A stretch of 48,520 nt of DNA, from the IMG/VR virus record IMGVR_UViG_2711768004_000012. One strand, 5' to 3'. The notes under the pieces were generated by a model. It saw nothing but the letters and a program-made list of their open reading frames with translations. It made no database searches and had not been told where the DNA came from. Numbering within the stretch: the first letter of the stretch is position 1; every line of letters begins with the position of its first letter. Below, in pieces: positions 798 through 46,968 of the stretch. The position numbers were made by a program, and so were the translations under genes. The stretch is from a virus (lineage: Duplodnaviria > Heunggongvirae > Uroviricota > Caudoviricetes).

Positions 798-3685
798 TAT
801 GCAAGCCTCACAATATAGTTAAATGCGATGTTTTTGACGGTGTTTTCCGCGTTACCAGCAGCGTTAACGGTGATGGTGTGTCCATGTGAACCAATCGCAA
901 CGGAGTGCGTATGAGCACCAATACCGACAGTATGCGCGTGTGCACCTGCAGATGCTGCTGTGCCGGACAGTGAATGGCTATGATTACCATCTATACTGGT
1001 ATTCGCTAACCACCCCGTAGACATACCTACTGAGCCTTGTACACCCCAGGTATTTTGACCTGAGCTTGTATAACCATATTGATAAGTATCTTTAAAAACA
1101 CTGGGGTTAAATCGACGGCCATCTCTATGGCTGTGATTACCAGCTGCATTCGTGCTGCCACTTAAACTATGGGTATGCGCACCAGTGTTATTCGTGGATT
1201 TAGTGCCGTAATCAAACGACGATGTGGTTTTCGTCCCCAAATCCGTACTGGATGCGCTGGCGCTGTGGGTATGCGATTTAATGCCGTCCTGTTCCTGAGA
1301 CAATACGGCCCGACCACTGGCAGGTTTGCCCTTAATCGTCCAGCCACGCATATCAGGGATCACGCCTGACGGATAAGCCGCTGCAAGTTTCGGGTATGCA
1401 GATTTGTCAAAAGCCTGCCCCTGCATCAGGGCATAGCCAGACGGAACGGTATCTGATGGCCACGGGATTGGTGCGCCAGGCGGATAAAACTGCTCTGATG
1501 GCGTATAGAGTGAATAAACTGTACCGTCCGTTAACCCTTCCGGCTTATTAGCAGAATATGCTGGTGACGTATGAATCGTCACGCTGGCATTACTGGTATA
1601 ATCCCATTGAATATTTACACCAGTCGCATAATTTCCGATTGCAACGTAAATATCGTAAGTATCACCAGATGTATTAACCCAGGCAAAATTTGTAAACCCT
1701 GTCAATGTGCGCTGCCATAAAGCACCAGTAATCCCCTTCGGATTACCATTACCTGCACGTAAAACAAGTTCAGATATACCTGCCTGTTGAGGTGACCCCA
1801 CGTTAAATCCAGCGCCACCAATCAACGTAATTGAAACAACAGAACTCGCCTGTGGCATGGTTACCGTTGCTAATTTGAACCAACCAGCACCACCGCTGAA
1901 TGACATTGTTGTTGAGTTAAGCGTACCAATATCTTTCGGCGTCAGTGTTATATCCGCTGAAAGCGCCTTACCATTCACCTTACGGGCAGAAGGTACCCGA
2001 CCATTCGCATTGTCATTAGCTGCTTTCACTGCTTTCGGTGTCGCAGCAAGCGTTTCAGATGTGCTGTTGGTTGCACTACTGAGCTGGACAATTCCTTTTT
2101 GTGCTGTCGTAGCGTCCTGTGCGGTGTATTTCCCGTTAGCCAGGTCATACGCGGCCTTAACGGCTTTTGGCGTTGCCGCCTGTGACTCGGAAGTGCTGTT
2201 AGTCGCACTGCTGAGCTGAACTATCCCTTTCTGTGCTGTCGTTGCATCCTGTGCGGTGTATTTCCCGTTAGCCAGGTCATACGCGGCCTTAGCTGTCTCG
2301 GCGCGCGTTGCCGCGGATTCCGCCGTACTTTTGCTCTGTGCTGCCGCTGCCGCACTGCCAGCAGCCTCTGTCGCCTTCGTGGATGCCGTCGTGGCGCTGC
2401 CCCTCGCTGCTGACGCCTGTCTGGTCGCCTCATCTTTTGAAGCAGACGCAGATGATGCCGATGACGCCGCCGAACTGGCGGACGATGCGGCAGCCGTTTT
2501 TGAGGATTCTGCGCTGGTTTCCGACGCTTTCGCGTTCGTTTCGGATGTCTTCGCTGCGGAAGCAGACCTCGCTGCTGCGCTGGCCTGTTCAGTGGCTTCG
2601 CCAGCCTTCGTTGTGGCTGTTGAAGCGGATGATGCGGCGCTTTCTGCCGATTTTCCGGCGGCGGTGGCACTGACTGCTGCCTCCTCTGCCTTAATGGACG
2701 CCTCACGGGCCGATGATGCAGCTGCTGTCTCAGAGTCTGCCGCAGCTGAGGCGCTCTGTTCCGCTGCCGTTTCAGAAGACTTAGCATTCGTCTCGGACGT
2801 TTTTGCCGCCTTCACGGAATTTCCTGCCGCCGTTGCCGAGGAGGCTGCACTGCTGGCGCTTGTGGAGGCGTTCGTTTCTGATGATTTTGCCGCCTCTTTG
2901 GAGGCCGCCGCATCTCTGGCTGAAGTGGCGGCTTCTGACGCTTTCGTTGTCGCNNNNNNNNNNNNNNNNNNNNNNNNNNNNNNNNNNNNNNNNNNNNNNN
3001 NNNNNNNNNNNNNNNNNNNNNNNNNNNNNNNNNNNNNNNNNNNNNNNNNNNNNNNNNNNNNNNNNNNNNNNNNNNNNNNNNNNNNNNNNNNNNNNNNNNN
3101 NNNNNNNNNNNNNNNNNNNNNNNNNNNNNNNNNNNNNNNNNNNNNNNNNNNNNNNNNNNNNNNNNNNNNNNNNNNNNNNNNNNNNNNNNNNNNNNNNNNN
3201 NNNNNNNNNNNNNNNNNNNNNNNNNNNNNNNNNNNNNNNNNNNNNNNNNNNNNNNNNNNNNNNNNNNCAGATGTGCCGGCATCACTGGCTGACTTCTTCG
3301 CGGCTGCCGTGTTCTGTGCCACCGCGGACGCGTTACGCGCCACCTCTTCCACCATCAGTTCAAAACGGCGCAGAGCCTCCGGACGGGCATCATCCTCCGT
3401 CATGGCACCGAGAAAATCATTCAGCGTACCGGGTCGGGAATCTTCATACACAGTGATGGTCCCGGCATGTGACGGCGGGAATCCTTCCACCAACAGAATA
3501 ACGCTGTACTGACCGTACTCAACGTCCATGCTGTAACGCCCGGCTTCATCCGGATTTTCTGAGGCCAGCGTGTTCACCACCACCGTGGTGCTGTTACGTT
3601 TTGCTTTCAGCTGGATTGTGCAGTTCTGTACCGGTTTTCCTGTGCCGTCTTTCAGTACACCTGAAATCTTTACTGCCATATTCAC
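797..3685 (-). CDS. stf: Side tail fibre protein (Stf-like); interrupted by N run 2954-3267
   Basis: 962 aa ORF; N-terminus [29 protein letters not shown] resembles lambda Stf; long Ala/Ser/Thr-rich central region; C-terminal His/Gly-rich receptor-binding region; followed by tfa. Confidence 0.8.
2040..2300. repeat. Direct tandem repeat inside stf, period about 132 nt (2 copies), encoding a duplicated ~44 aa block
   Basis: Nearly identical DNA, e.g. gtgctgtt...cccgttagccaggtcatacgcggcctta at 2061-2160 and again 132 nt later; protein shows [35 protein letters not shown] twice. Confidence 0.8.
2954..3267. other. Run of N (masked/undetermined, 314 nt) inside stf
   Basis: Literal n characters in the sequence. 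Confidence 1.
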
Positions 3686-3908: not shown

Positions 3909-4491
3909 NNNNNNNNNNNNNNNNNNNNNNNNNNNNNNNNNNNNNNNNNNNNNNNNNNNNNNNNNNNNNNNNNNNNNNNNNNNNNNNNNNNNNNNNNNNN
4001 NNNNNNNNNNNNNNNNNNNNNNNNNNNNNNNNNNNNNNNNNNNNNNNNNNNNNNNNNNNNNNNNNNNNNNNNNNNNNNNNNNNNNNNNNNNNNNNNNNNN
4101 NNNNNNNNNNNNNNNNNNNNNNNNNNNNNNNNNNNNNNNNNNNNNNNNNNNNNNNNNNNNNNNNNNNNNNNNNNNNNNNNNNNNNNNNNNNNNNNNNNNN
4201 NNNNNNNNNNNNNNNNNNNNNNNNNNNNNNNNNNNNNNNNNNNNNNNNNNNNNNNNNNNNNNNNNNNNNNNNNNNNNNNNNNNNNNNNNNNNNNNNNNNN
4301 NNNNNNNNNNNNNNNNNNNNNNNNNNNNNNNNNNNNNNNNNNNNNNNNNNNNNNNNNNNNNNNNNNNNNNNNNNNNNNNNNNNNNNNNNNNNNNNNNNNN
4401 NNNNNNNNNNNNNNNNNNNNNNNNNNNNNNNNNNNNNNNNNNNNNNNNNNNNNNNNNNNNNNNNNNNNNNNNNNNNNNNNNNNNNNNNNNN
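3909..4491. other. Run of N (583 nt) covering the J 3' end and lom 5' end
   Basis: Literal n characters. Confidence 1.
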
Positions 4492-7400
4492 TTTTGGTCA
4501 CAATCACCGTACAGTCGGTGATATTGCCTGCCCCCTGATTGCCTTTCTGGAAAATCTTAAACTCCAGAGTGACGCTACCACCACCACTAGGCATATCAAT
4601 AACTGCACTGTAACTACCGGGAATGGCCCCTTTAGTTTCTCTGGATGCGATTAATACGCCGTTTTTGCGAACTTCAAAACCATAACCCGTGTATCGCGTG
4701 CCTCCTGGGTTATTTCCGCTCCCCGGATCGTCATACGCTATACCGTTAAAAATAATGGGCGGAATAATAATCTGGCGGTCAAAGTTATGATCATCGCTGA
4801 TGGTGACTGTAACCGTACCGTCTGGTGTTTCCGTGTTACCCCACGTACCGACTTTTTTCGGGAAGGCTTTTGATACAGCTTTAACGAAATCCCCTCTGAC
4901 CTGGGTCGCCTCCAGCATGCCCTTAATCGTACAGTTCTGGTTAATCGTGACATTGTTGAGCGTTCCTGAGTTCGCATTCACACTACCACTGATATCCGCA
5001 TTTTTAGCGGTCAGCTTTCCGTCTGATGTCAGGGAAAATACCGGAGGACTGCCACCGCTGGTAATGGCGGGGGCTGTCAGGCGCTTCAGGAACACGTCGT
5101 TCATGAATATCTGGTTGCCCTGCGCCACAAACATCGGCGTTTCATTCCCGTTTGCCGGGTCAATAAACGCGATACGATTGGCGGCAACCAGAAACTGGCT
5201 CAGCTTGCCTTCCTCCGTGTCCTCCATGCTGAGGCCAATACCCGCGACATAATGTTTGCCGTCTTTGGTCTGCTCAATTTTGACGCCCCACATCGCATTC
5301 CATTTATCGTTAGCGTCCTTCCACTCTTTCGAAAACTCATCCAGTCTGCTGGCGTTATCCTCCGTCAGATCAACTTTTTCCAGCAGCTCTTTACCGAGAT
5401 GGGATTCGGTTATCTTGCCTTTGAAAAAATCCAGGTAACCTTCCGCATCATCGCTCGCCCGACCGACGGCCTCCACGAATGCCGATTTGCCAACGGTGTT
5501 CACACTGCGGATATAAAAGTAATAATCATGGCCCGGTTTGATATTGATACTGGCGGCTATCCAGTACAGCCCCGCGCCAAGGTAGCGGGCTGTGGTTTCA
5601 ACCTGCCTGATATCGGTAATCCGCGTTTCCGAGAACCAGAACTCAAACTGTACCGTCGGATCATAAACCGCAAGATGCGGCGTGGCAGTTATCTGAAAAT
5701 AGCCCGGCGTCAGCTCAATCCGCGACGGTGCTACCGGTGCGGCAATCCTGAACGATACCGACGCCGGATCGCCCTGCTGTCCCCAGGCATTTACCGCCCG
5801 GACTGTCAGCGTGTACCGTCCCAGCGCCAGTTGCGTGAAGCGGTATGTGGTTTCCGTCGTCCGGGCCGTGCTGACCAGCCGCTCACTGCCGTCATCCGCT
5901 GCCACGGTCAGGCGAAGCATAAAGCTCACCCCCTTCACCACCTTCGGCGTGTCCCAGCGCGCCAGCACCTGATATTCCCCGCTGTCTGCGGTGACTTCGG
6001 CAGTCAGGTGCTGCACCGCTGGCGGCGTGACACCATTCACCGTGCCGCTCTGGTCGCCGTCAAAGTGCGCCCCGTTATCCACGATGGCTTCTTTTTCCGG
6101 TACATGCTGCACGGCAGTGATGGCATACGTGCCGTCATCGTTCTCACGGATACTCACACAGCGGAACAGGCGCTGGCGCAACGTCGGCAGCTTCAGCCCC
6201 CACACGCTGTATTCAGCAACGCCGTCAGGAACACGGCTCACTTTCACCTTCACGCCGTCGGTGACGGACTGAACCTCCACGCTGACCGGATTGCCACTTC
6301 CGTCAACCAGGCTTATCAGCATGGTACCGGAGGATGGCAGCGTGATTTCACGGTCGAGCGTCAGCGTCCGGGTCTGGCTGTTTACCGCCAGCACGCGCCC
6401 GCCGATGCTGATACCCGCATAGTCATCATCACAGATTTCAATGACATCGCCCGGCACATGGCGAAGCCCTTCTGCGCCCACGCTGAAGTCCACGGTCTGC
6501 GTTTCCAGCAGTTCTGTTTTAATCAGCCACAGCCCGGCGCGGTGTGCCTGCCCCCGGCTGGTACAGCCAAAAGCATCCATCTTCGTGACGTTACGACCGT
6601 AACGGGCAATGGCCTGCGTATCCTCCACAAGCTCTGTCGCCGTCTCCCAGCCGTTATCCGGGTCAATCCAGTTCACCTCAACGGCATTATGGCGGTCNNN
6701 NNNNNNNNNNNNNNNNNNNNNNNNNNNNNNNNNNNNNNNNNNNNNNNNNNNNNNNNNNNNNNNNNNNNNNNNNNNNNNNNNNNNNNNNNNNNNNNNNNNN
6801 NNNNNNNNNNNNNNNNNNNNNNNNNNNNNNNNNNNNNNNNNNNNNNNNNNNNNNNNNNNNNNNNNNNNNNNNNNNNNNNNNNNNNNNNNNNNNNNNNNNN
6901 NNNNNNNNNNNNNNNNNNNNNNNNNNNNNNNNNNNNNNNNNNNNNNNNNNNNNNNNNNNNNNNNNNNNNNNNNNNNNNNNNNNNNNNNNNNNNNNNNNNN
7001 NNNNNNNNNNNNNNNNNNNNNNNNNNNNNNNNNNNNNNNNNNNNNNNNNNNNNNNNNNNNNNNNNNNNNNNNNACACCAGGCCATGTTGTTGCTGTATGC
7101 TGGTTTTAACGTTCCGTCCCAGATACCGCTGTATTGTCGCGTCTGCGGGTTATAGTTCGACGGCACCTGCAGAATGCGCCCGCGAAGATGATAATTACGA
7201 CTCACCTGCTGGCTGCCGAACTGCTCCGAGTCCACCTGTACGCCGACCAGTGCAGTGTTCGGGTAGCACTGTTTCACATCGATGATTTCGGTGTATGACG
7301 ACCAGAGCGTTTTGTTCTGCAGCTGGTCTGTGGTGCTGTCCGGTGTCATCCTGCGCATCCGGATACTGAACGGGCGCGGAGGCAGGTTATCCACCACCAC

Positions 7401-7958: not shown

Positions 7959-8567
7959 TCAGCGACCAATCACCACAACCTGACCACCATCCCCTTCGTC
8001 TGCCGTGCTGATCTCCTGAGAAACCACACGTGACCCCACGCGCATTTCCCCGTACAGAACAGGCAGAACATTACCCTGGGCAACCATGTTATCCAGTGAC
8101 GAGAAATACGTGTTCTGTTTGCCGTTATCTGTACTGGCTGCCGTGGGCGTCCTGGCTTTCGGTGCCAGCATCTGCGCCACACCACCCAGGATCATACTGG
8201 CCCCTGCTGCATACATACCCGATACAGCCGCGGCCCCCAGCCAGCCCACAGGGTTCCACCATGCCACCGCAATCAGCGCCGCACCCAGCACCGCCTGAAA
8301 CACACCGCCACTTTTGGCACCCGCCAGACGCGGAACGATGTGGATCACGGCACCATTTGCCAGCGGTTCATTAAGACGGGCAGATAATTCATTTTCGCCT
8401 GCATCACGCCCGGCAATGCGCACCTGATACCAGCCGTCGCTCAGTTTCTGACGAAATGCCGGGAGCTGTGTGGCCAGTGCCCGGATGGCTTCGGCCCCCG
8501 TTTTCACACGAAGGTCGATGCGGCGGCCAAATCGCTGCAAATCCCCGTAAAGGCAGATGCGTGCCAT
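7959..8567 (-). CDS. I: Tail assembly protein I
   Basis: 202 aa ORF MARICLYGDLQRFGRRIDLRVKTGAEAIRALATQ..., Gly/Ala-rich hydrophobic C-terminal half, located between K and J as in lambda. Confidence 0.8.
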   Translation of the reverse strand: MARICLYGDLQRFGRRIDLRVKTGAEAIRALATQLPAFRQKLSDGWYQVRIAGRDAGENELSARLNEPLANGAVIHIVPRLAGAKSGGVFQAVLGAALIAVAWWNPVGWLGAAAVSGMYAAGASMILGGVAQMLAPKARTPTAASTDNGKQNTYFSSLDNMVAQGNVLPVLYGEMRVGSRVVSQEISTADEGDGGQVVVIGR

Positions 8568-8590
8568 GCCCGGTGACGCCAGAGGGAGTG

Positions 8591-8678
8591 NNNNNNNNNN
8601 NNNNNNNNNNNNNNNNNNNNNNNNNNNNNNNNNNNNNNNNNNNNNNNNNNNNNNNNNNNNNNNNNNNNNNNNNNNNNN
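8591..8678. other. Run of N (88 nt) at the K/I junction
   Basis: Literal n characters. Confidence 1.
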
Positions 8679-9304
8679 TCTCGTTTACTCAGTTGTTCAG
8701 GAATATGGTGCAGCAGCTCGCCGTCACCACAGTAAATGGCGGCATGATTCGGCACCGATGAACCAAAACAGCACAGCAGCACATCGCCCGGCTGCGCCGT
8801 TGACAACGGCACCTGATACAGCCCTGTAGCCTCCAGATTATCCAGATAGAGATTCTGACCATTACGCCACCAGTCGTCCTCACGATGAAAATCTGGCATC
8901 TCAATTCCCGCCAGATGGTAAGCGTCCCGGAACAGCGTGTAACAGTCCGTCACCCCGTGCTCAAAGCGCCGCCCGGTGAGATGCGGCACACAGCGGAACT
9001 TGTGAATCGCCCCGCGGCAGACCAGCCACCACGACAAATCACTCTGCACCTGCAGCCGCCGGTCGGCCTCACTCAGCCAGGGCAGACCACCGGGGTGGCT
9101 GTGGACCAGCGCCACAATCTCACCCTGCATCTCTGCCTGCAGCCAGTCCTCCGGAGCCATCCGGAAATACTCCTCCGGCTCACCGGAGATATTCACGCAG
9201 GGAAAATATCTTTCCCCCTCCGGTGTTCTCACCACGAAGCCGCACGACTCCGCTGGCGCACATCGCCGGGCGTGCGCCAGAATCGCTGATTCTGTCTGTG
9301 TCAT
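8679..9304 (-). CDS. K: Tail assembly protein K (JAB/MPN + NlpC/P60-like); 3' end in N run
   Basis: MTQTESAILAHARRCAPAESCGFVV...ALVHSHPGG (MPN-like HSHP motif) followed by a Cys-containing C-terminal domain ...VTDCYTLFRDAYH...; lambda K-like; sits between L and I. Confidence 0.8.
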
Positions 9305-10008: not shown

Positions 10009-10346
10009 CAGATCACCACTTCGTCAAACTGACACGAAAAATCGGTATAGGTGATATGTTCTGTCGCTGACCACGTTCGACACACCACTCTGATTTTTCT
10101 GTTAATACCCGGCGGGCGCCAAAAAAAAGATTTATAGCCTTCATGCCGGGCTAAAAATTTTTCAAATGAATCACGTTCATTCGCCTCAACTTTGAAATCA
10201 CAGGTGAAAACGCGCAGAGAATGATTAAGTCCATTTGGACTTCGTTGCTCATAACCATCACCAAATCTTACAGTTTTTATCGATGGTTTATTTTCTGTTT
10301 TCATTCCATCCTCTGGTAACCAGTGAAATTCTTCCGTATTAGCCAC
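10008..10346 (-). CDS. M: Minor tail protein M
   Basis: 112 aa ORF containing [16 protein letters not shown]...KSFFWRPP, resembling lambda M; ATGA overlap with L. Confidence 0.75.
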
Positions 10347-13300
10347 TTAACATTCCCCCATCACGTCGCATATTTAACAGATTGCCCTGCACCCGCTGAT
10401 CAACCATCCCCATAAGTGCTTTTATTGCCTGAGGGCCAATCTCTCCATTCTGGCCGTCATTTTGAATAGTGATTTGGTATACAGGGGCATAGGTAATATC
10501 TCCGCCTCCATTACCACTTTTACTATTAATAGCTCTGACACCAAGAGAACCATCGGAAGTTCGTGTTAATGGCATAATGGCTTCCGGTCCAGCCTCACCA
10601 AAAACACCAGCCCCTTTTGCAAAAGCAAAAAATTGCGGGGAATCATAAATACCGTTCGAATACGTGCTCAATGACGGAGACTCATAAACACCGCCCTTTG
10701 CATTCGGAATAAATTTACTAATAGCACTCCCGATAGTTCCTAAAATCCCCCCAGAAGAACTGTTACTAATGCTGTCGAAAATCCCAGTAATTGAAGCCTT
10801 TAATGCTATTCGACTAAGATCCGAAATCACGGAAGTAGCGAAAGAACGAAAATTTGCCTTGCCTGTCGTGACAAAATCACCCAGCGCATCGGTCATCCCA
10901 TCAAACATCTGAGTCGTGGTTGATTTTATCTGCTCACTGATATCCTTAGTGTCATCCAGCCAGTTATTGAATCCCTGGGAGGCACCACTAACCCAGTCTC
11001 CTGCCTGAATATCGAGCTGCTCGTTTTTCTGTCTGACAATTTCTTTTTCCCGTTCCAGAGCATCATTCAGAGCCTGCATTTTCTCTTGAAAAACATGATC
11101 TGACATTCCACGGGATTTATCTGCATAGTCACGTTCAAGTTGCAGACGCTGATTGTTATATCCATGTTCAATCCGCAGTAATTCCTGCTGGCGTTGCTGA
11201 TTTTTATCGCCAACCCCATAACCAGCAATCTGAATATCATACCCCTGCTGACGATTATCAATCGAAGCCTGCAATGAATCACGCCATGCTGTTATTTCGG
11301 CGGATTCCTTGATTAGCCTGTTATTTTTTTCAATCGCAACATTTTTCTCCATCAACGTGGTTATTTCTTCCCGGTGTAAGAGAAGCGATTTCTGATCCTG
11401 GGTTAATTTCGATGATGGTCGTGACTCTAGGTCGGCAATCCGCTGACGCCACTTAACCAGTTCCTGTTCAGAGGAACTTAATTTAACGGTCAACTCAGCT
11501 TGTGAACTTAGTAACGCATTCTGTTGATTCAGATGATCAATCATTCGTTGGGCTGCATCATCAGAATAACCTTTCGCCTTTGGTTGCTTTGGATCTTTAT
11601 AACGCTCATTTATTTGAGCGATAAGATTATTATATTCTTCCTTTGAATACTGATTCTTTAGCTTTTCCAGTTTTGCAAGTTCACTAGCTCTCTGCTGCTC
11701 CCGGGTCTGATATTGTTTTGAAAAGGCATCTGCTCTCTGTCTGAGTTCAATTCCTTCCTGTTGTCGCTTGTTGTAATCGTTTATTGATGAATTTAGTACG
11801 TCCTGAGCAATTTTTTCTGCTTGAAGTACGCCCAATTGCTGCTTTAATCGTGCCAGCCTTTTATTTTGAGCTCCGCCATCTCCAATGCCACCTAACCCGA
11901 AAACTCCGGGTCGGGTATTTTTTTCTATTTCATCAATTTGACGGAGAACATCTGAGATTTTTTGATCAAGGGAGGCCTCACGGCCAATATCCAGCATGGA
12001 ATCCCATGCCCATTTTGCGGAGTCTGCGACAGCTTTCCATGCAGTCTCAAGATAACCAAGATTTTCTTTAATCTGGTTGGTGCGCTGGATCATTGAGGAT
12101 GAGTATTCTTCTGTCGCAATGCGGGCGGCCTCCTGCTGGTTCCCTTCATCCTGTAGCGCCTTAATCTGGTTATAAGTCGCAAGTGTCAGAAAATGGTACT
12201 GATCATTAAGTTTTGATATGGCACTGACAGGATCCTTTGCAATTTCATTGAAGTCATTAACCAGTTGTTCGGTTGATATTCCTGTTACTTCGCTCGTTTT
12301 TACTATCGCTGTCGTCACTTGCTCCAGCGAACTGCTCGCTACCTTTCCCGAACGCACAAGCTGATTTAATACTGCCGCCGCAGCACCAGTTGTCGAATCA
12401 GCCGCATTCCCGGCACGTTGAGCTATATCGCCCAATTGCCCGCTGGTTGTCCCCAACTGATTTCCGGTAAGAATAAGAGATTTATTAAATTCGTCCTGCT
12501 CCTGAGAGCCTTTATAGTAAGCCAGTCCTAAGACCCCAACGGCTGCTGCGGCCAGGGTAAAAGGATTAATTAATCCCAGCACATAAGAACCTACACCTTT
12601 GATCGCCGGGCCAATCCCACCGAACATATCTTTTAGCTGGCCGCCCTGCTGCATTAACACCATAAATGGCGACTGACCAGTGGACAACCCAACAACAATA
12701 TCCGTCATTTGTACAGGCAACATGCGCATAGCAAAAGCCGTTTGTTTTGCCGACATTCCGGTTTTGCTTAATTGTGATTGAGTAACCTCAAGCTCACTCC
12801 GCATAGCACGAAGTTTTCCAGAAAGCTCCTCATACATTTCAGGAGAAAGCATCCCCTTAGCTTTTGCTTCATTGAGCTGTTTCTGTTGTTCTACCAGACG
12901 ATTAAAAGCAGTTCCGACAGGATCAAGTTGAGCAATCAGACGTTGCAAAGCAACAACCTGTTCATCATGCGCTTTTGCTGCTTCTCGCTCTGCCTGAGCC
13001 TCTCCGGTAAGCTCTCGCCGTGTTTCCTGTATTTTTCGGCTATAATTCTCAAACTGAGAACCATTTATTTTCCCGGATGCAAACGCAGCATTAAGTTCAT
13101 CATGCTGTTGTTCAAGATTTCTTAGCGCCGCAGCCAGAGGGTCGATCTTGTCCAGCATTCTTTGAAAGGCCTGAGCCTGCGCTTCCTGCTGGGCGGCAGC
13201 AAGTTTTCCGGCCTTCTCGGCTTCTCTCTGCGCTTGCGCAACCCCGCTCAATTCCTCTGTGGTTTCATTAAGTTTACGGACAAGAAATTCATATTCTTCT

Positions 13301-13572
13301 TTATCAATAAGCCCTTTATCGAAAAATTTCTTTAATTCAGAATAGCGTCGACCGACAGTATCAATTGCGGCACCAACTGGATCAATAGCTGCTTTTAATT
13401 TTGCGAGCGCGTTCTTCTCATCTTCTGTTGCCTTAGTCACTTTCCCTGCGCTATTTGCAGCAGTTTCCCCAGCCTGCGTCATTTTGACTAATGAGGAGGT
13501 CAGATTGTCAGCATTATTTTTCGCTCCAGTGCTATCAATAATTATTGCGAGACGCGAGGTTTGCTCTGCCAT
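10339..13572 (-). CDS. Tail tape measure protein
   Basis: 1077 aa ORF, coiled-coil-rich (repeated E/K/Q/L heptad-like stretches) with a Gly-rich hydrophobic central segment; located between the chaperone G/GT pair and M. Confidence 0.85.
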
Positions 13573-13737
13573 TTATTAAAACTCCTGACAACAAAAAACC
13601 CACCGCGAAGTGGGTTTCAGGCGACATAATAGTAGATATAGCGATTACGAGGCCACGCAATGCTTTTCTCCAGGAGCATCATCGATTTAATTAAAGACAC
13701 CATCACATCTCTGTAACAGAGTGTACGTAATTAACAA

Positions 13738-14507
13738 CTACACACACTGCTCCTGAAAATACTGGTCATCCAGTGCAAAGATCACTGCTTCAAATTCATC
13801 GCGCTCAATCAATACCGGATGAGTGGCTAAATATTCATTTATCTCTGTCAGAGATAAAGGCAAAGGCACCCCAGCCATTCCAGCATAACGTCGGGCACGG
13901 GATATTACCGAATAGGCGTACAACAACTCCTTAAGCACCGGGTCTATTTCTGGTTCCGGTATCGGTGGCAACCTGAGTTTTTCTCGCTTCCATCTTGCCT
14001 TTTCCCCCCTTTCTCCCCCGAACTCCGATAACCACCGCTGGGCAGCTATGGCTTTTTTATCGTATCCTGCTTCTGCTGCTCTTTACCCTGGGCGATGCTG
14101 GCTGCTTCTGCAAGGATCTGCCAGTACAACTCTGGATTCTGCTTAAGCAGCGCGATCCCTCGTTCTGCCGTATATTCCAGTGCAACCTCAACACCATTAA
14201 CCAGTTCACCAACCCCTTTCCAGTCTTTCAGCAGATAACGAGCGGCATTATCAATGAGTAAATCATCAACAGAATCCACCTCGGAAACCTTTGAAATATC
14301 AAACTCCTTCGTTCCGACGTGCAAACTGGCATCCATTTTCTCAATGTGGCGACGGATTAATGCATTACGGGAGCGATACTGATCGTTATCGCTGCTTGCC
14401 ACCAACAGTTTTAACCCGTCTACAGGTTTTAAGTCCTTCATTGGCGTAAACCAGCGTTCTCCACCAATGATAATTTTCTGATTAAGAATAAACATCCATA
14501 ACCTCAT
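13738..14507 (-). CDS. Tail assembly chaperone G-T fusion, made by programmed -1 frameshift at 14052-14058
   Basis: The -1 frame after the AAAAAAG heptamer continues open for about 100 codons (AIAAQRWLSEFGGERG...) to a stop at 13738; the downstream ORF lacks its own ATG; position immediately upstream of the tape measure gene. Confidence 0.65.
14046..14507 (-). CDS. Tail assembly chaperone (G-like, zero-frame product)
   Basis: 153 aa acidic ORF directly upstream of the tape measure gene, ending ...QDTIKKP with the slippery heptamer A_AAA_AAG spanning the last codons. Confidence 0.7.
   Translation of the reverse strand: MRLWMFILNQKIIIGGERWFTPMKDLKPVDGLKLLVASSDNDQYRSRNALIRRHIEKMDASLHVGTKEFDISKVSEVDSVDDLLIDNAARYLLKDWKGVGELVNGVEVALEYTAERGIALLKQNPELYWQILAEAASIAQGKEQQKQDTIKKP
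14052..14058 (-). other. Slippery heptamer A_AAA_AAG (programmed -1 ribosomal frameshift site)
   Basis: Plus-strand cttttttat; on the coding strand ATA AAA AAG CCA TAG, the same heptamer class as E. coli dnaX. Confidence 0.65.
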
Positions 14508-14555: not shown

Positions 14556-15518
14556 TCAACTAATCGCCTCAGCACTGGCTTTTGCGATCACGGCAGCCGG
14601 GGAATTTTTTTTTCTGGTTATCGTAGGTGCTTCATCTGCTGCGGTAATGCTCAATTGAACCTGGATAATGTCGCTATTACCCCCATCAGGCCATTCACCT
14701 GACACCTGAACCTTCGGGAAACTGAAAGTGTATGCCCCCTCTCCATTCGAAAGCGTGAAGCTGAACGGAACTGTTTCTCCAGTCAGTGTTTTACTCCAGA
14801 TTTCCCACGCGGCTTTAGACCATGAAAGCGTCACCGTACCGGACGGTGTAAAAGTAGTCGGAATATTTGCTCCTGCATAAGGCGAGCCAGTCCCGATACA
14901 ACGCTGTGTCTGGAGTTTGTTATCGAACTGAATATCAAAACTGTCGATACAAAAACCGTTACCTCCGGCAACACCATTCAGGCTTACTGCTGAAACCTCC
15001 TTAAACGAATAACGTAGCTTTCCTGCACTATCCACAGGTTCGCCTTTGATAAAATTCGTATCATCGGCCTTTGATTCCCAGTCCAGTCCGGCAAAGGTTA
15101 CGGTCGCTGTAATATCGCCGTCGTTAGGGATCTGCATTTTCCATGAGCCAACCTGCGCTCCTCTGACGACAGAGGCAATTCCGACATCGGACGCATAGGT
15201 CGCCAGAGAAAATGTTATTCGCTCATTCCCCATTGTCAGAGAATCGCCTGACCATTCCGCGCCGAAACAGGATGCAAGAAAATCATCATGTTGACCCCAG
15301 CGAAATTTGGTACCAACATCACCGCCGACATCCACAGTGCCAGGCGTCGCCCCCTGAGCCATCCGGGAGCCACCAATCTCATTATTTTCGCCTTTATTCT
15401 GGGTGGGTTTTACTCCCCAGCTTGTGCGTTTTAATAAACTCCAGTCACCACTTGCTGGCGTAGTGCCTGCAACCGTCTCCCGGATAAATGCCGAGATAAC
15501 CTTTGCACCTGAACTCAC
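14556..15518 (-). CDS. Major tail (tube) protein
   Basis: 320 aa ORF between head-tail joining genes and the chaperone pair; Gly/Thr/Ser-rich beta-type composition typical of tail tube proteins. Call is by position and composition. Confidence 0.6.
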   Translation of the reverse strand: MSSGAKVISAFIRETVAGTTPASGDWSLLKRTSWGVKPTQNKGENNEIGGSRMAQGATPGTVDVGGDVGTKFRWGQHDDFLASCFGAEWSGDSLTMGNERITFSLATYASDVGIASVVRGAQVGSWKMQIPNDGDITATVTFAGLDWESKADDTNFIKGEPVDSAGKLRYSFKEVSAVSLNGVAGGNGFCIDSFDIQFDNKLQTQRCIGTGSPYAGANIPTTFTPSGTVTLSWSKAAWEIWSKTLTGETVPFSFTLSNGEGAYTFSFPKVQVSGEWPDGGNSDIIQVQLSITAADEAPTITRKKNSPAAVIAKASAEAIS

Positions 15519-16314: not shown

Positions 16315-16698
16315 TTACGCTCTCCTTAACTGGATAGAGTAAACTGATGCGGAAGGATCTACACTTGCTGTAATTACCTCGTATCGTTGTAACTGCCTTG
16401 ATACAGGATCATAAATCTCAATAATATGGTCGACAGCTGGTTTATCCGTAACCTCGCATACCAGAGCGGTTAATTTAAGGTCACCATGCAAAATATTAAT
16501 CCCATCAATTCTGCCCAGCTTATAACGTGTCAACACGCCTCGCCCGGTATAGATTGCGGTTGATTCGCCGCCAGTTTCCGTCACAGGATCCCAGTGCCGG
16601 TGCGTAACGTAAGAACCAGAAAAATCACTCACGGCGTCCGCTAAATCCTCATCAAAAGCAGCGGCAACCTCTGACTGAATCTCTTCACGAAGCCCCAT
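16315..16698 (-). CDS. Head closure / head-tail adaptor protein (by position)
   Basis: 127 aa ORF in the connector block between capsid and tail genes. Confidence 0.45.
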   Translation of the reverse strand: MGLREEIQSEVAAAFDEDLADAVSDFSGSYVTHRHWDPVTETGGESTAIYTGRGVLTRYKLGRIDGINILHGDLKLTALVCEVTDKPAVDHIIEIYDPVSRQLQRYEVITASVDPSASVYSIQLRRA

Positions 16699-17093
16699 TA
16701 TCCCCCCCTCACAACCCTGACTTGTGAGCGACTAAGTCCGTACGGTTTCAGCAGTGCTATCGCAAGCTGTAAATCGGGTTCAAGCAATGCAGTGCTGTTT
16801 GCTGGCAACTCAGAAAATGATTTCGATACACTGACCCCGTCAGCCGACACGGCTTTACTGATAACAACGCCAGAATCATTTTTCTGCTGAAACAACTTAC
16901 CGAATGAGGCAATTCTGGCTGCATATGCTCCCGCAAGTTTTACCTCTTCCGGAATACGGGATGGGTTAATTTTCAGGTTGAAGCCATTAAGCCAGGCATT
17001 AGCCATTAAAACAGCTTTATTTTTAGCGTTCTCACTCGTCCAGGCGTTCCCAAACGCATTATCAACGTCATCACAGGTCACGTAAGTGATCAT
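16698..17093 (-). CDS. Head-tail connector protein (by position)
   Basis: 131 aa ORF downstream of the capsid gene, overlapping the next gene by 1 nt. Confidence 0.45.
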   Translation of the reverse strand: MITYVTCDDVDNAFGNAWTSENAKNKAVLMANAWLNGFNLKINPSRIPEEVKLAGAYAARIASFGKLFQQKNDSGVVISKAVSADGVSVSKSFSELPANSTALLEPDLQLAIALLKPYGLSRSQVRVVRGG

Positions 17094-28262: not shown

Positions 28263-28512
28263 NNNNNNNNNNNNNNNNNNNNNNNNNNNNNNNNNNNNNN
28301 NNNNNNNNNNNNNNNNNNNNNNNNNNNNNNNNNNNNNNNNNNNNNNNNNNNNNNNNNNNNNNNNNNNNNNNNNNNNNNNNNNNNNNNNNNNNNNNNNNNN
28401 NNNNNNNNNNNNNNNNNNNNNNNNNNNNNNNNNNNNNNNNNNNNNNNNNNNNNNNNNNNNNNNNNNNNNNNNNNNNNNNNNNNNNNNNNNNNNNNNNNNN
28501 NNNNNNNNNNNN
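28263..28512. other. Run of N (250 nt) covering the R 3' end and Rz 5' end
   Basis: Literal n characters. Confidence 1.
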
Positions 28513-30339: not shown

Positions 30340-30936
30340 TTTTCCTCACATATGTCATATAGTAAAGGATTATATATACCGTTGTTTTGGACGCTCAAAC
30401 AGCGAATCAGATCAAATAAAACGCACATTTGTTAACATTTACACAAAGTCTGCGTGGGATATTCTGAAAGAATATCCATAATGTGGAGAGAATCTATTGA
30501 AGTGCATGGTGCCGGGTGCCTCCCGGTGAACAAAATGTTCGTGATACCTGTCGGCGACAGAAAAGGTTAATGGTATCACCCCACCGCACAGGGGGATTCA
30601 CCATGCAGGAGTTTTCTTAGCAAACTCACTGCGCGCCCGGCAACTCCCAACCACATAAAATGCGGAGTTTGTGGCATTTATGCATATAACTCGCAGGAAT
30701 TATCTTAAAAAACTGATGTCGATCCGGATTAAAAAGAAGCAGGTCATCATCAGATGACTGGAAAAAAGGAAAACAAAAAATACTCATCATACAGTTTTGA
30801 TTGCAGGGATGAGCCTGCTATGCACAATATGCAGAATATAAGCAAGATAAAAATATGCAGGCATATTATTTCGGATCTTGTTATTAACACAACCTTTTTA
30901 ATAATCATTTGGCATACAATAAACCAGCCCAAAAAG

Positions 30937-46779: not shown

Positions 46780-46968
46780 ATGTATAAAATTACCGCCACT
46801 ATTGAAAAGGAAGGTGGCACTCCTACTAACTGGACAAGATATTCAAAATCTAAACTAACGAAATCAGAATGCGAAAAAATGCTCTCAGGTAAAAAAGAAG
46901 CAGGCGTTTCCAGAGAGCAGAAAGTAAAACTGATAAATTTTAATTGCGAGAAACTTCAGTCCTCGTGA
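46780..46968 (+). CDS. ydaC: YdaC-like small protein (start may be at 46768, MEVFMYK)
   Basis: MYKITATIEKEGGTPTNWTRYSKSKLTKSECEKMLSGKKEAGVSREQKVKLINFNCEKLQSS; between ralR and xis as in Rac. Confidence 0.55.
   Translation: MYKITATIEKEGGTPTNWTRYSKSKLTKSECEKMLSGKKEAGVSREQKVKLINFNCEKLQSS

Follow-up and report, generated by a model that had tools for sequence, protein, structure and literature searches.

Known Frameshift Systems and the Window Locus

In phage lambda, the tail genes G and T are joined by a frameshift that yields G and G-T in a 30:1 ratio, with G binding the tape measure protein and T recruiting the tube protein, an arrangement that is widely conserved (Levin, Hendrix, and Casjens 1993; Xu, Hendrix, and Duda 2004, 2013, 2014; as reviewed in PMC5009743). 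In this study, we explored a comparable pair of reading frames in a stretch of caudoviricete DNA of 48,520 nucleotides (nt), the IMG/VR record IMGVR_UViG_2711768004_000012, hereafter the window. Our findings support a model where a G-like tail assembly chaperone and a T extension are linked by a programmed -1 frameshift at the heptamer A_AAA_AAG, which would produce both G and a fusion of 252 amino acids, GT; we place the probability of this reading at about 90%. Recoding of the G/GT kind is well known from lambda and most long-tailed phages; the case described here is an ordinary one, and it leaves the understanding of frameshifting and of tail assembly unchanged.

The likeness to lambda extends to position, layout, and signal. 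Both pairs lie between the major tail and tape measure genes, both combine a short G with a startless T in the -1 frame, and both carry an X_XXY_YYZ heptamer ending in A_AAG near the G stop, with no evident RNA stimulator. The sizes are also similar, 140 and 144 amino acids for G and T in lambda, and 149 and 104 here. Yet the lambda heptamer is G_GGA_AAG rather than A_AAA_AAG, the lambda G stop lies 15 nt after the site instead of 3 nt, and the lambda tube protein is V, whereas that of the window is of the Phage_tube_2 type. A distant relative by descent is the gp18/gp19 pair of Acinetobacter phage vB_AbaS_TRS1, which shares both family and layout with our locus (its T is ~39% identical and its G aligns) and for which the slip is annotated in RefSeq (NC_031098); it differs in using G_GGA_AAG and in a 0-frame tail of 78 nt after the site.

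The heptamer of the window has a precedent in another E. coli prophage tail chaperone, the ECs1801/ECs1802 pair of prophage Sp9 in O157 Sakai, placed in cluster A_AAA_AAG_25 and considered "safely inferred" (Sharma et al. 2014; PMC4066793 Table S4). There, too, the gene has A_AAA_AAG beside its stop (...AGA AAA AAG TAG) and a longer -1 product; unlike the window gene, ECs1801 has 124 amino acids and its stop follows the heptamer directly, and BLASTP gave no alignment between ECs1801 and the G of the window, the two belonging to unrelated families. A preliminary description of our locus, made from its sequence alone, had remarked on a dnaX-type heptamer in place of that of lambda; this is correct and, given ECs1801, not unusual. 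E. coli dnaX (gamma/tau) does use the identical A_AAA_AAG and the same tRNA-Lys slippage (PMC4344849). The window is unlike dnaX in that no conserved stimulator was found, in that its frameshifted product is the longer one, and in the low efficiency to be expected. In dnaX, a strong upstream Shine-Dalgarno-like element and a downstream stem-loop support a shift of ~50%, which gives the shorter product. No conserved flanking stimulators of that type were found at the window site, which has only a four-base AGGA upstream.

The G/T Overlap and Its Conservation

Tail tube, G, T, and tape measure genes follow one another on the same strand (table 1), the order typical of the G/GT class. The program-made list of open reading frames (ORFs) gives G as 14046..14507, with 153 amino acids from an upstream ATG at 14507; the ATG at 14495 is preferred for its better-spaced GAGG, 6 nt before it, and the N-terminus read from it (MFILNQK...) matches that of relatives. 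On the minus strand, the end of G reads ...CAG GAT ACG ATA AAA AAG CCA TAG CTG CCC... The preliminary description had seen in the codons ATA AAA AAG CCA TAG a heptamer in -1 slip phase, followed by a -1 frame open for some 100 codons down to 13738, and our analysis bears this out, with the heptamer at 14058..14052 and 104 codons counted from the slip point (101 past the G stop). The -1 frame is closed upstream by a TAA (table 1), and the space for a productive slip is only 34 nt. The predicted GT junction, ...QDTIKK-AIAAQR..., would be spanned by the Asp-N peptide DTIKKAIAAQRWLSEFGGERGEKARWKREKLRLPPIPEPEI and the Glu-C peptide QQKQDTIKKAIAAQRWLSE; trypsin cleaves inside the junction KK.

Table 1. 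Features of the G/T region and its flanks in the window, in transcriptional order
Feature	Coordinates	Strand	Basis or remarks
Tail tube (major tail) protein gene, directly upstream of G	14556..15518	-	Pfam Phage_tube_2, E 9.4e-32; RefSeq "phage tail tube protein"
G-like tail assembly chaperone ORF, 0 frame	14046..14495	-	149 amino acids; ATG at 14495
Overlap 5' of the heptamer, -1 frame already open	14053..14082	-	Preceded by TAA at 14085..14083
AGGA, four-base Shine-Dalgarno-like stretch, 6 nt 5' of the heptamer	14065..14068	-	Widely kept; also encodes conserved Gln-Asp/Glu
Slippery heptamer A_AAA_AAG, X_XXY_YYZ phase (0-frame codons ATA AAA AAG)	14052..14058	-	Sequence
T extension, -1 frame after the slip	13738..14052	-	First codon GCC (14052..14050), then 103 sense codons; stop TAG 13740..13738
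Weak hairpin directly 3' of the heptamer, no spacer	14025..14051	-	About -11 kcal/mol, many G-U pairs
0-frame stop TAG of G, one codon (CCA) beyond the heptamer	14046..14048	-	Sequence
TTG taken as the T start by ORF callers	13969..13971	-	Not a real start (see text)
Tape measure protein gene, downstream of T	10339..13572	-	1077 amino acids; Pfam TMP_2 (E 3.9e-81), Tape_meas_lam_C, TMP_4

As in the G/GT class at large, T shares the end of G, read in the -1 frame, and has neither a start nor a ribosome binding site of its own. The preliminary description had noted that the ORF track was forced to begin T at a TTG. This codon, the earliest candidate start in the frame, is directly abutted by an AGG, which leaves no usable Shine-Dalgarno spacing, and it is not conserved: its counterpart is CTC, CTT, or CTG in Citrobacter, Klebsiella, Scandinavium, Pantoea, and Pectobacterium, and for that reason the TTG is not a start. 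The further claim that T lacks any ATG needs a qualification; none precedes the conserved domain, but one exists within the frame, encoding the Met of ...RYAGMAGV..., deep inside that domain. In addition, conservation of the -1 frame reaches back from the TTG over some 27 residues, as far as the heptamer, and the peptide (K)AIxAQxWLxEFGGExGEKAxWxREKLxLPPIPEPEID... is retained across genera from the first codon after the slip.

Heptamer counts within the window say little by themselves. AAAAAAG occurs 23 times on both strands against 13.9 expected; it is in phase in two copies within stop-to-stop ORFs of at least 100 codons, and only from the copy at the end of G does a long -1 frame continue past the 0-frame stop. 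Since this single-window statistic is weak, other heptamers also entering long -1 frames (mostly spurious ORFs over real genes), the support for the frameshift site rests decisively on comparative data. The comparison covered phage records retrieved with the conceptual fusion as tblastn query, together with 13 bacterial-genome loci and 80 IMG/VR loci. The tblastn hits had G and T as separate segments, each in a frame of its own, in phages of Klebsiella (65% identity), Erwinia (55%), Pseudomonas (32%), and Acinetobacter (31%). Overall, the 0/-1 layout is found in Escherichia, Shigella, Citrobacter, Klebsiella, Scandinavium, Serratia, Pectobacterium, Pantoea, Mixta, Erwinia, Pseudomonas, and Acinetobacter, at protein identities that fall to 21-32%, and in every lineage T overlaps the end of G in the -1 frame and runs for 82-115 codons beyond the G stop, with a single exceptional locus described below. 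The position of the 0-frame stop, by contrast, varies among relatives, at distances past the site of 0, 3, 21, 75, or 105 nt, and the tail of that frame lacks conservation.

At the homologous codon, A_AAA_AAG is present in Escherichia, Shigella, Citrobacter, Klebsiella, and Scandinavium, and G_GGA_AAG in Serratia, Pantoea, Mixta, and Acinetobacter. The conservation goes beyond the encoded residues. The lysine of the heptamer AAG (K148) belongs to the nine columns that show no variation when ten fusions, 21-71% identical, are aligned, and a codon table covering 91 loci (28 distinct segments of 66 nt) has AAG for this Lys, at codon +2, in 28 of 28 segments. The 24 A-type segments all have AAA at codon +1 and, just before it, an Ile or Val codon with A as its last base (ATA/GTA, 24 of 24); where GGA_AAG or GGG_AAG follows, this preceding codon has G there instead (GTG, three segments out of three). 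The change from GTA to GTG is synonymous for Val and preserves the X_XXY_YYZ pattern, whereas nearby Gly, Lys, Gln, and Thr codons show two to four synonyms each among the 28 segments. These codon choices show nucleotide-level (synonymous-site) selection on the heptamer. The overlap thus holds, as expected of the G/GT class, an in-phase slippery sequence that is conserved among relatives and whose X base covaries synonymously.

Among the IMG/VR relatives, A_AAA_AAG is present in 80 of 80, and in 79 it lies in phase inside the overlap. The exception is locus L024 (IMGVR_UViG_2513237361_000013), where one G has been lost from a GGGGGG run 45 nt 3' of the intact heptamer, at about position 1700, so that T beyond this point is no longer in the -1 frame, which reflects either secondary damage in a defective copy or a homopolymer sequencing error. 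L024 was considered as a natural in-frame G-T fusion and rejected, as the one-nucleotide deletion in the G run lies downstream of an intact heptamer. A true in-frame fusion does exist in the E. coli protein P0068 (240 amino acids), where an internal deletion has joined ...QILAEA to GYDKKAIAAQ... and removed the heptamer region; it is rare (five member sequences in its cluster), and a prophage of this type would make GT only and, by analogy with lambda, is probably tail-defective.

At the protein level, G matches PHROG 313, "tail assembly chaperone", with E 4.9e-46 over profile positions 15-149 of 258, and T gives a weak match to the same profile (E 0.0097, positions 173-246). Some PHROG 313 members are therefore annotated as fusions, given that the 258-position profile also covers the T part. 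Alone, T corresponds to phrog_1189, whose function is unassigned there (E 1.4e-36). It also reaches 20.7 bits (E 4.7e-4) with Pfam Phage_TAC_18 (PF23812), below the gathering cut-off of 27 bits, and on the same stretch of that profile the T domains of three relatives, out of six, reach 13.7-17 bits, which suggests a relationship to Phage_TAC_18 that would be distant at most. A precomputed database label, Pfam PF27119, is carried by all the G homologues listed, a model that was not matched in the Pfam copy scanned. With no detectable sequence homology to lambda G or T, the G/T pair is a functional analogue of lambda G/T within a family of its own, PHROG 313. Taken together, synteny, PHROG 313 membership, and the conservation of layout and heptamer agree with the preliminary description, which had recognized here the conserved G/GT recoding arrangement upstream of the tape measure gene.

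Proposed Mechanism and Rival Explanations

The slip itself, its efficiency, and the binding partners of its products are what we infer from these observations. Most ribosomes would make G and stop at the TAG one codon past the heptamer. A minority would slip back one base on A_AAA_AAG, with tRNA-Lys on AAA in the P site and on AAG in the A site, and would then read GCC ATA GCT..., adding the 104-residue T domain to give GT. Tandem slippage by two tRNAs, of which tRNA-Lys occupies A_AAG in the A site, requires the very pattern that is conserved here. By analogy with lambda, the G part of both products may coat the tape measure protein and the rarer T domain may recruit the tail tube protein, in a fixed, low GT:G ratio that would be set by the efficiency of frameshifting. 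As in lambda, tail assembly would be expected to depend on both products, and virions to contain neither (PMC5009743).

Reporter data from E. coli give some measure of what this efficiency could be. For A_AAA_AAG, the -1 shift amounts to 0.29% with no stimulator, 4.3% with the IS911 stimulator, and 39% with that of IS3; for G_GGA_AAG, the corresponding values are 0.28%, 3.8%, and 43% (Sharma et al. 2014; PMC4066793 Table S3). The measured efficiencies being nearly equal, the two heptamers can interchange in the family, which provides a clean example of equally slippery sequences replacing one another at one site. A low efficiency, between ~0.3% and a few percent, would fit a lambda-type role. 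On the upstream side, the AGGA stretch (table 1) is a possible weak stimulator, a candidate confounded by the coding of Gln-Asp/Glu; Shine-Dalgarno-like elements have been looked for 6-17 nt upstream of such sites (Sharma et al. 2014; PMC4066793). On the downstream side, the weak hairpin that abuts the heptamer is not conserved among relatives and is probably not a stimulator.

Several points weigh against the frameshift model. The GT fusion is a product predicted from the sequence. No downstream stimulatory structure emerged, folds of 62-149 nt after the heptamer, the weak hairpin (z = +0.89) included, being no better than those of shuffled sequences, and Rfam gave no match at the slip site up to E 10, except for a chance microRNA match. 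As a consensus of 14 diverse relatives reached only -2.9 kcal/mol, with no compensatory pairs, and so revealed no conserved downstream RNA structure either, the suggestion of the preliminary description to look for one ended negatively by all three approaches. The ~0.3% measured in reporters without a stimulator is about ten times below the GT:G ratio of 1:30 (~3%) in lambda (PMC4066793, PMC5009743). The G domain has no Pfam or NCBIfam match in the copies searched and no sequence relative in PDB, and no sequence homology to lambda G or T was detected when family profiles were compared with hhalign (probability 0.1-0.2%). Finally, three lineages have an imperfect heptamer at the homologous site: G_GGG_AAG in a Pectobacterium prophage (L019), C_GCA_AAG followed by TAA in Erwinia phage Gungnir39 (L006 1986-1995), and G_GAA_AAG in Pseudomonas phiPSA1 and also Aurca01 (L007, L008). 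In codons, the Gungnir39 site reads GTC GCA AAG TAA and that of phiPSA1 CTG GAA AAG CCA. In none of Gungnir39, phiPSA1, Aurca01, and Pectobacterium L019 is there a canonical in-phase heptamer anywhere in the overlap.

It follows from these three lineages that a perfect heptamer is not strictly required. If the phages with imperfect motifs still make GT there, A_AAG with near-cognate re-pairing in the P site may be enough for the frameshift required, a tentative proposal that we consider possible, with the balance tipping slightly towards doubt. Should it be true, the PHROG 313-type chaperone family would offer a natural series for measuring how much slippage tail assembly needs. That one fixed codon carries perfect motifs in some members of the family and imperfect ones in others is the only mildly unusual point of the system.

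Could the same layout arise without a ribosomal slip at the heptamer? T might be a separate gene with its own start, either the TTG or the start given in the record of phage SPF_0923, the heptamer then being coincidental. Gene callers and GenBank/RefSeq do annotate a separate "hypothetical protein" of 61-77 amino acids, and T homologues in databases show many different called starts; such scatter is, however, the expectation when a real start is absent. The poorly placed and variable TTG, the conserved -1 residues between it and the heptamer, the lack of an ATG ahead of the conserved domain, and the synonymous-site selection on the heptamer, together with the swap between A-type and G-type motifs, make an independent T very improbable. 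The fusion could also be reached in the same frame if RNA polymerase slipped and inserted one extra A in the mRNA. The site has six consecutive A, and fusions of a similar kind are known to arise when transcription slips on homopolymer runs (review PMC5009743). Against this, relatives with GGGAAAG (three A) at the same position keep the two-frame layout, from which we consider transcriptional slippage unlikely. The conserved X_XXY_YYZ in codon phase, with its 3' G, is moreover the signature of tandem tRNA slippage on AAG. A run of six A is also short, as transcriptional slippage normally needs runs of about nine or more. We regard this route as slightly less probable again than a separate T.

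Decay would be a more trivial cause of two frames: a G-T ORF, once continuous, could have been split by a frameshift mutation in a defective prophage, or could seem split through a homopolymer sequencing error. Rac-type elements are often defective, the K-12 copy is truncated, and single loci with secondary damage do occur, such as L024 and the deletion fusion P0068. Nonetheless, the same layout is present in 1061 of 5426 complete E. coli genomes, in isolated phages (SPF_0923, the vB_EcoS series, and phages of Klebsiella, Erwinia, Pseudomonas, and Acinetobacter), and in 12 genera, the codon of the frame change being the same throughout; we consider decay very improbable, and the least likely of these alternatives. 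Programmed -1 frameshifting on the heptamer thus remains the preferred explanation.

Annotation of YdaY and Prophage Context

The main value of these findings lies in the correction of annotation: YdaY is G, its start is placed 30 codons too late, and GT is unannotated. Of 5426 complete E. coli genomes, 1073 contain the chaperone region, with the gene labelled "YdaY" after the truncated Rac remnant of K-12. In intact prophages, RefSeq (PGAP) names G "protein YdaY", of 119 amino acids, beginning at an internal TTG (14403-14405, minus strand, in the window; L002 1616-1975), a start that omits 30 N-terminal residues conserved across genera and that was copied from the Rac remnant of K-12, where the 5' end of the gene is deleted. 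T is either unannotated in RefSeq or a "hypothetical protein"; none of the E. coli and Salmonella records inspected annotates the G-T join, and the only annotated join found in the family is that of Acinetobacter phage TRS1. A search of the available literature for papers linking ydaY or Rac to frameshifting or chaperones found nothing relevant. Once YdaY is recognized as the tail assembly chaperone of Rac-type prophages, made with a -1 frameshift, a "y-gene" family gains a function.

The K-12 MG1655 remnant itself (L003 2493-3200) consists of the 3' part of G (ydaY), an intact A_AAA_AAG, and the whole T frame, and adjoins the truncated tape measure pseudogene ynaA. Its 5' deletion joins ydaY to ynaK (ParB-like), and a ParB-YdaY fusion protein (P0102) is found in some genomes.

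The window is an intact Rac-type lambdoid prophage, as it carries head genes, minor tail genes, and the RalA small RNA (sRNA), RalA being the antitoxin of the Rac RalR toxin. Its tail chaperone region is 100% identical to that of Salmonella phage SPF_0923 and 98% identical to that of a series of induced E. coli phages. Rfam matches above the gathering score, all on the minus strand, are RalA sRNA at 46786-46964, IS009 at 256-454, and STnc100 at 30450-30636. The window also contains five runs of N, of 88-583 bases (2954-3267, 3909-4491, 6698-7073, 8591-8678, and 28263-28512), several of them inside tail genes: the run of 88 bases breaks the K-like ORF 8504..9304, and others fall in the J/host-specificity region.

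Between the T stop (13738) and the ATG of the tape measure gene (13572), a gap of 165 nt holds a terminator-like hairpin, GAAACCCAC-TTCG-CGGTGGGTTTT with a T-rich tail (13595-13618, minus strand), just 5' of the tape measure CAGGAG ribosome site. Through this hairpin, the tape measure and distal tail genes could be expressed at a lower level than the tube protein, G, and GT. Relatives from Klebsiella, Pseudomonas, and Acinetobacter have one to several extra small genes 3' of T, including a "membrane protein" and a DUF4760 protein (L005 2404-3239; L007 832-1173; L008 2250-3507; L009 2392-3095; L010 1827-2854). In the three Klebsiella and Pseudomonas loci these fall between T and the tape measure gene, where the window has a gap with the terminator-like hairpin only.

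Elsewhere in the window, a G_GGG_GGA heptamer (16701-16707, minus strand) lies in phase at the very end of a gene of 131 amino acids (17093..16698), with the next gene (16698..16315) in the -1 frame. This is probably a coincidence, since that next gene has its own ATG in an ATGA overlap.

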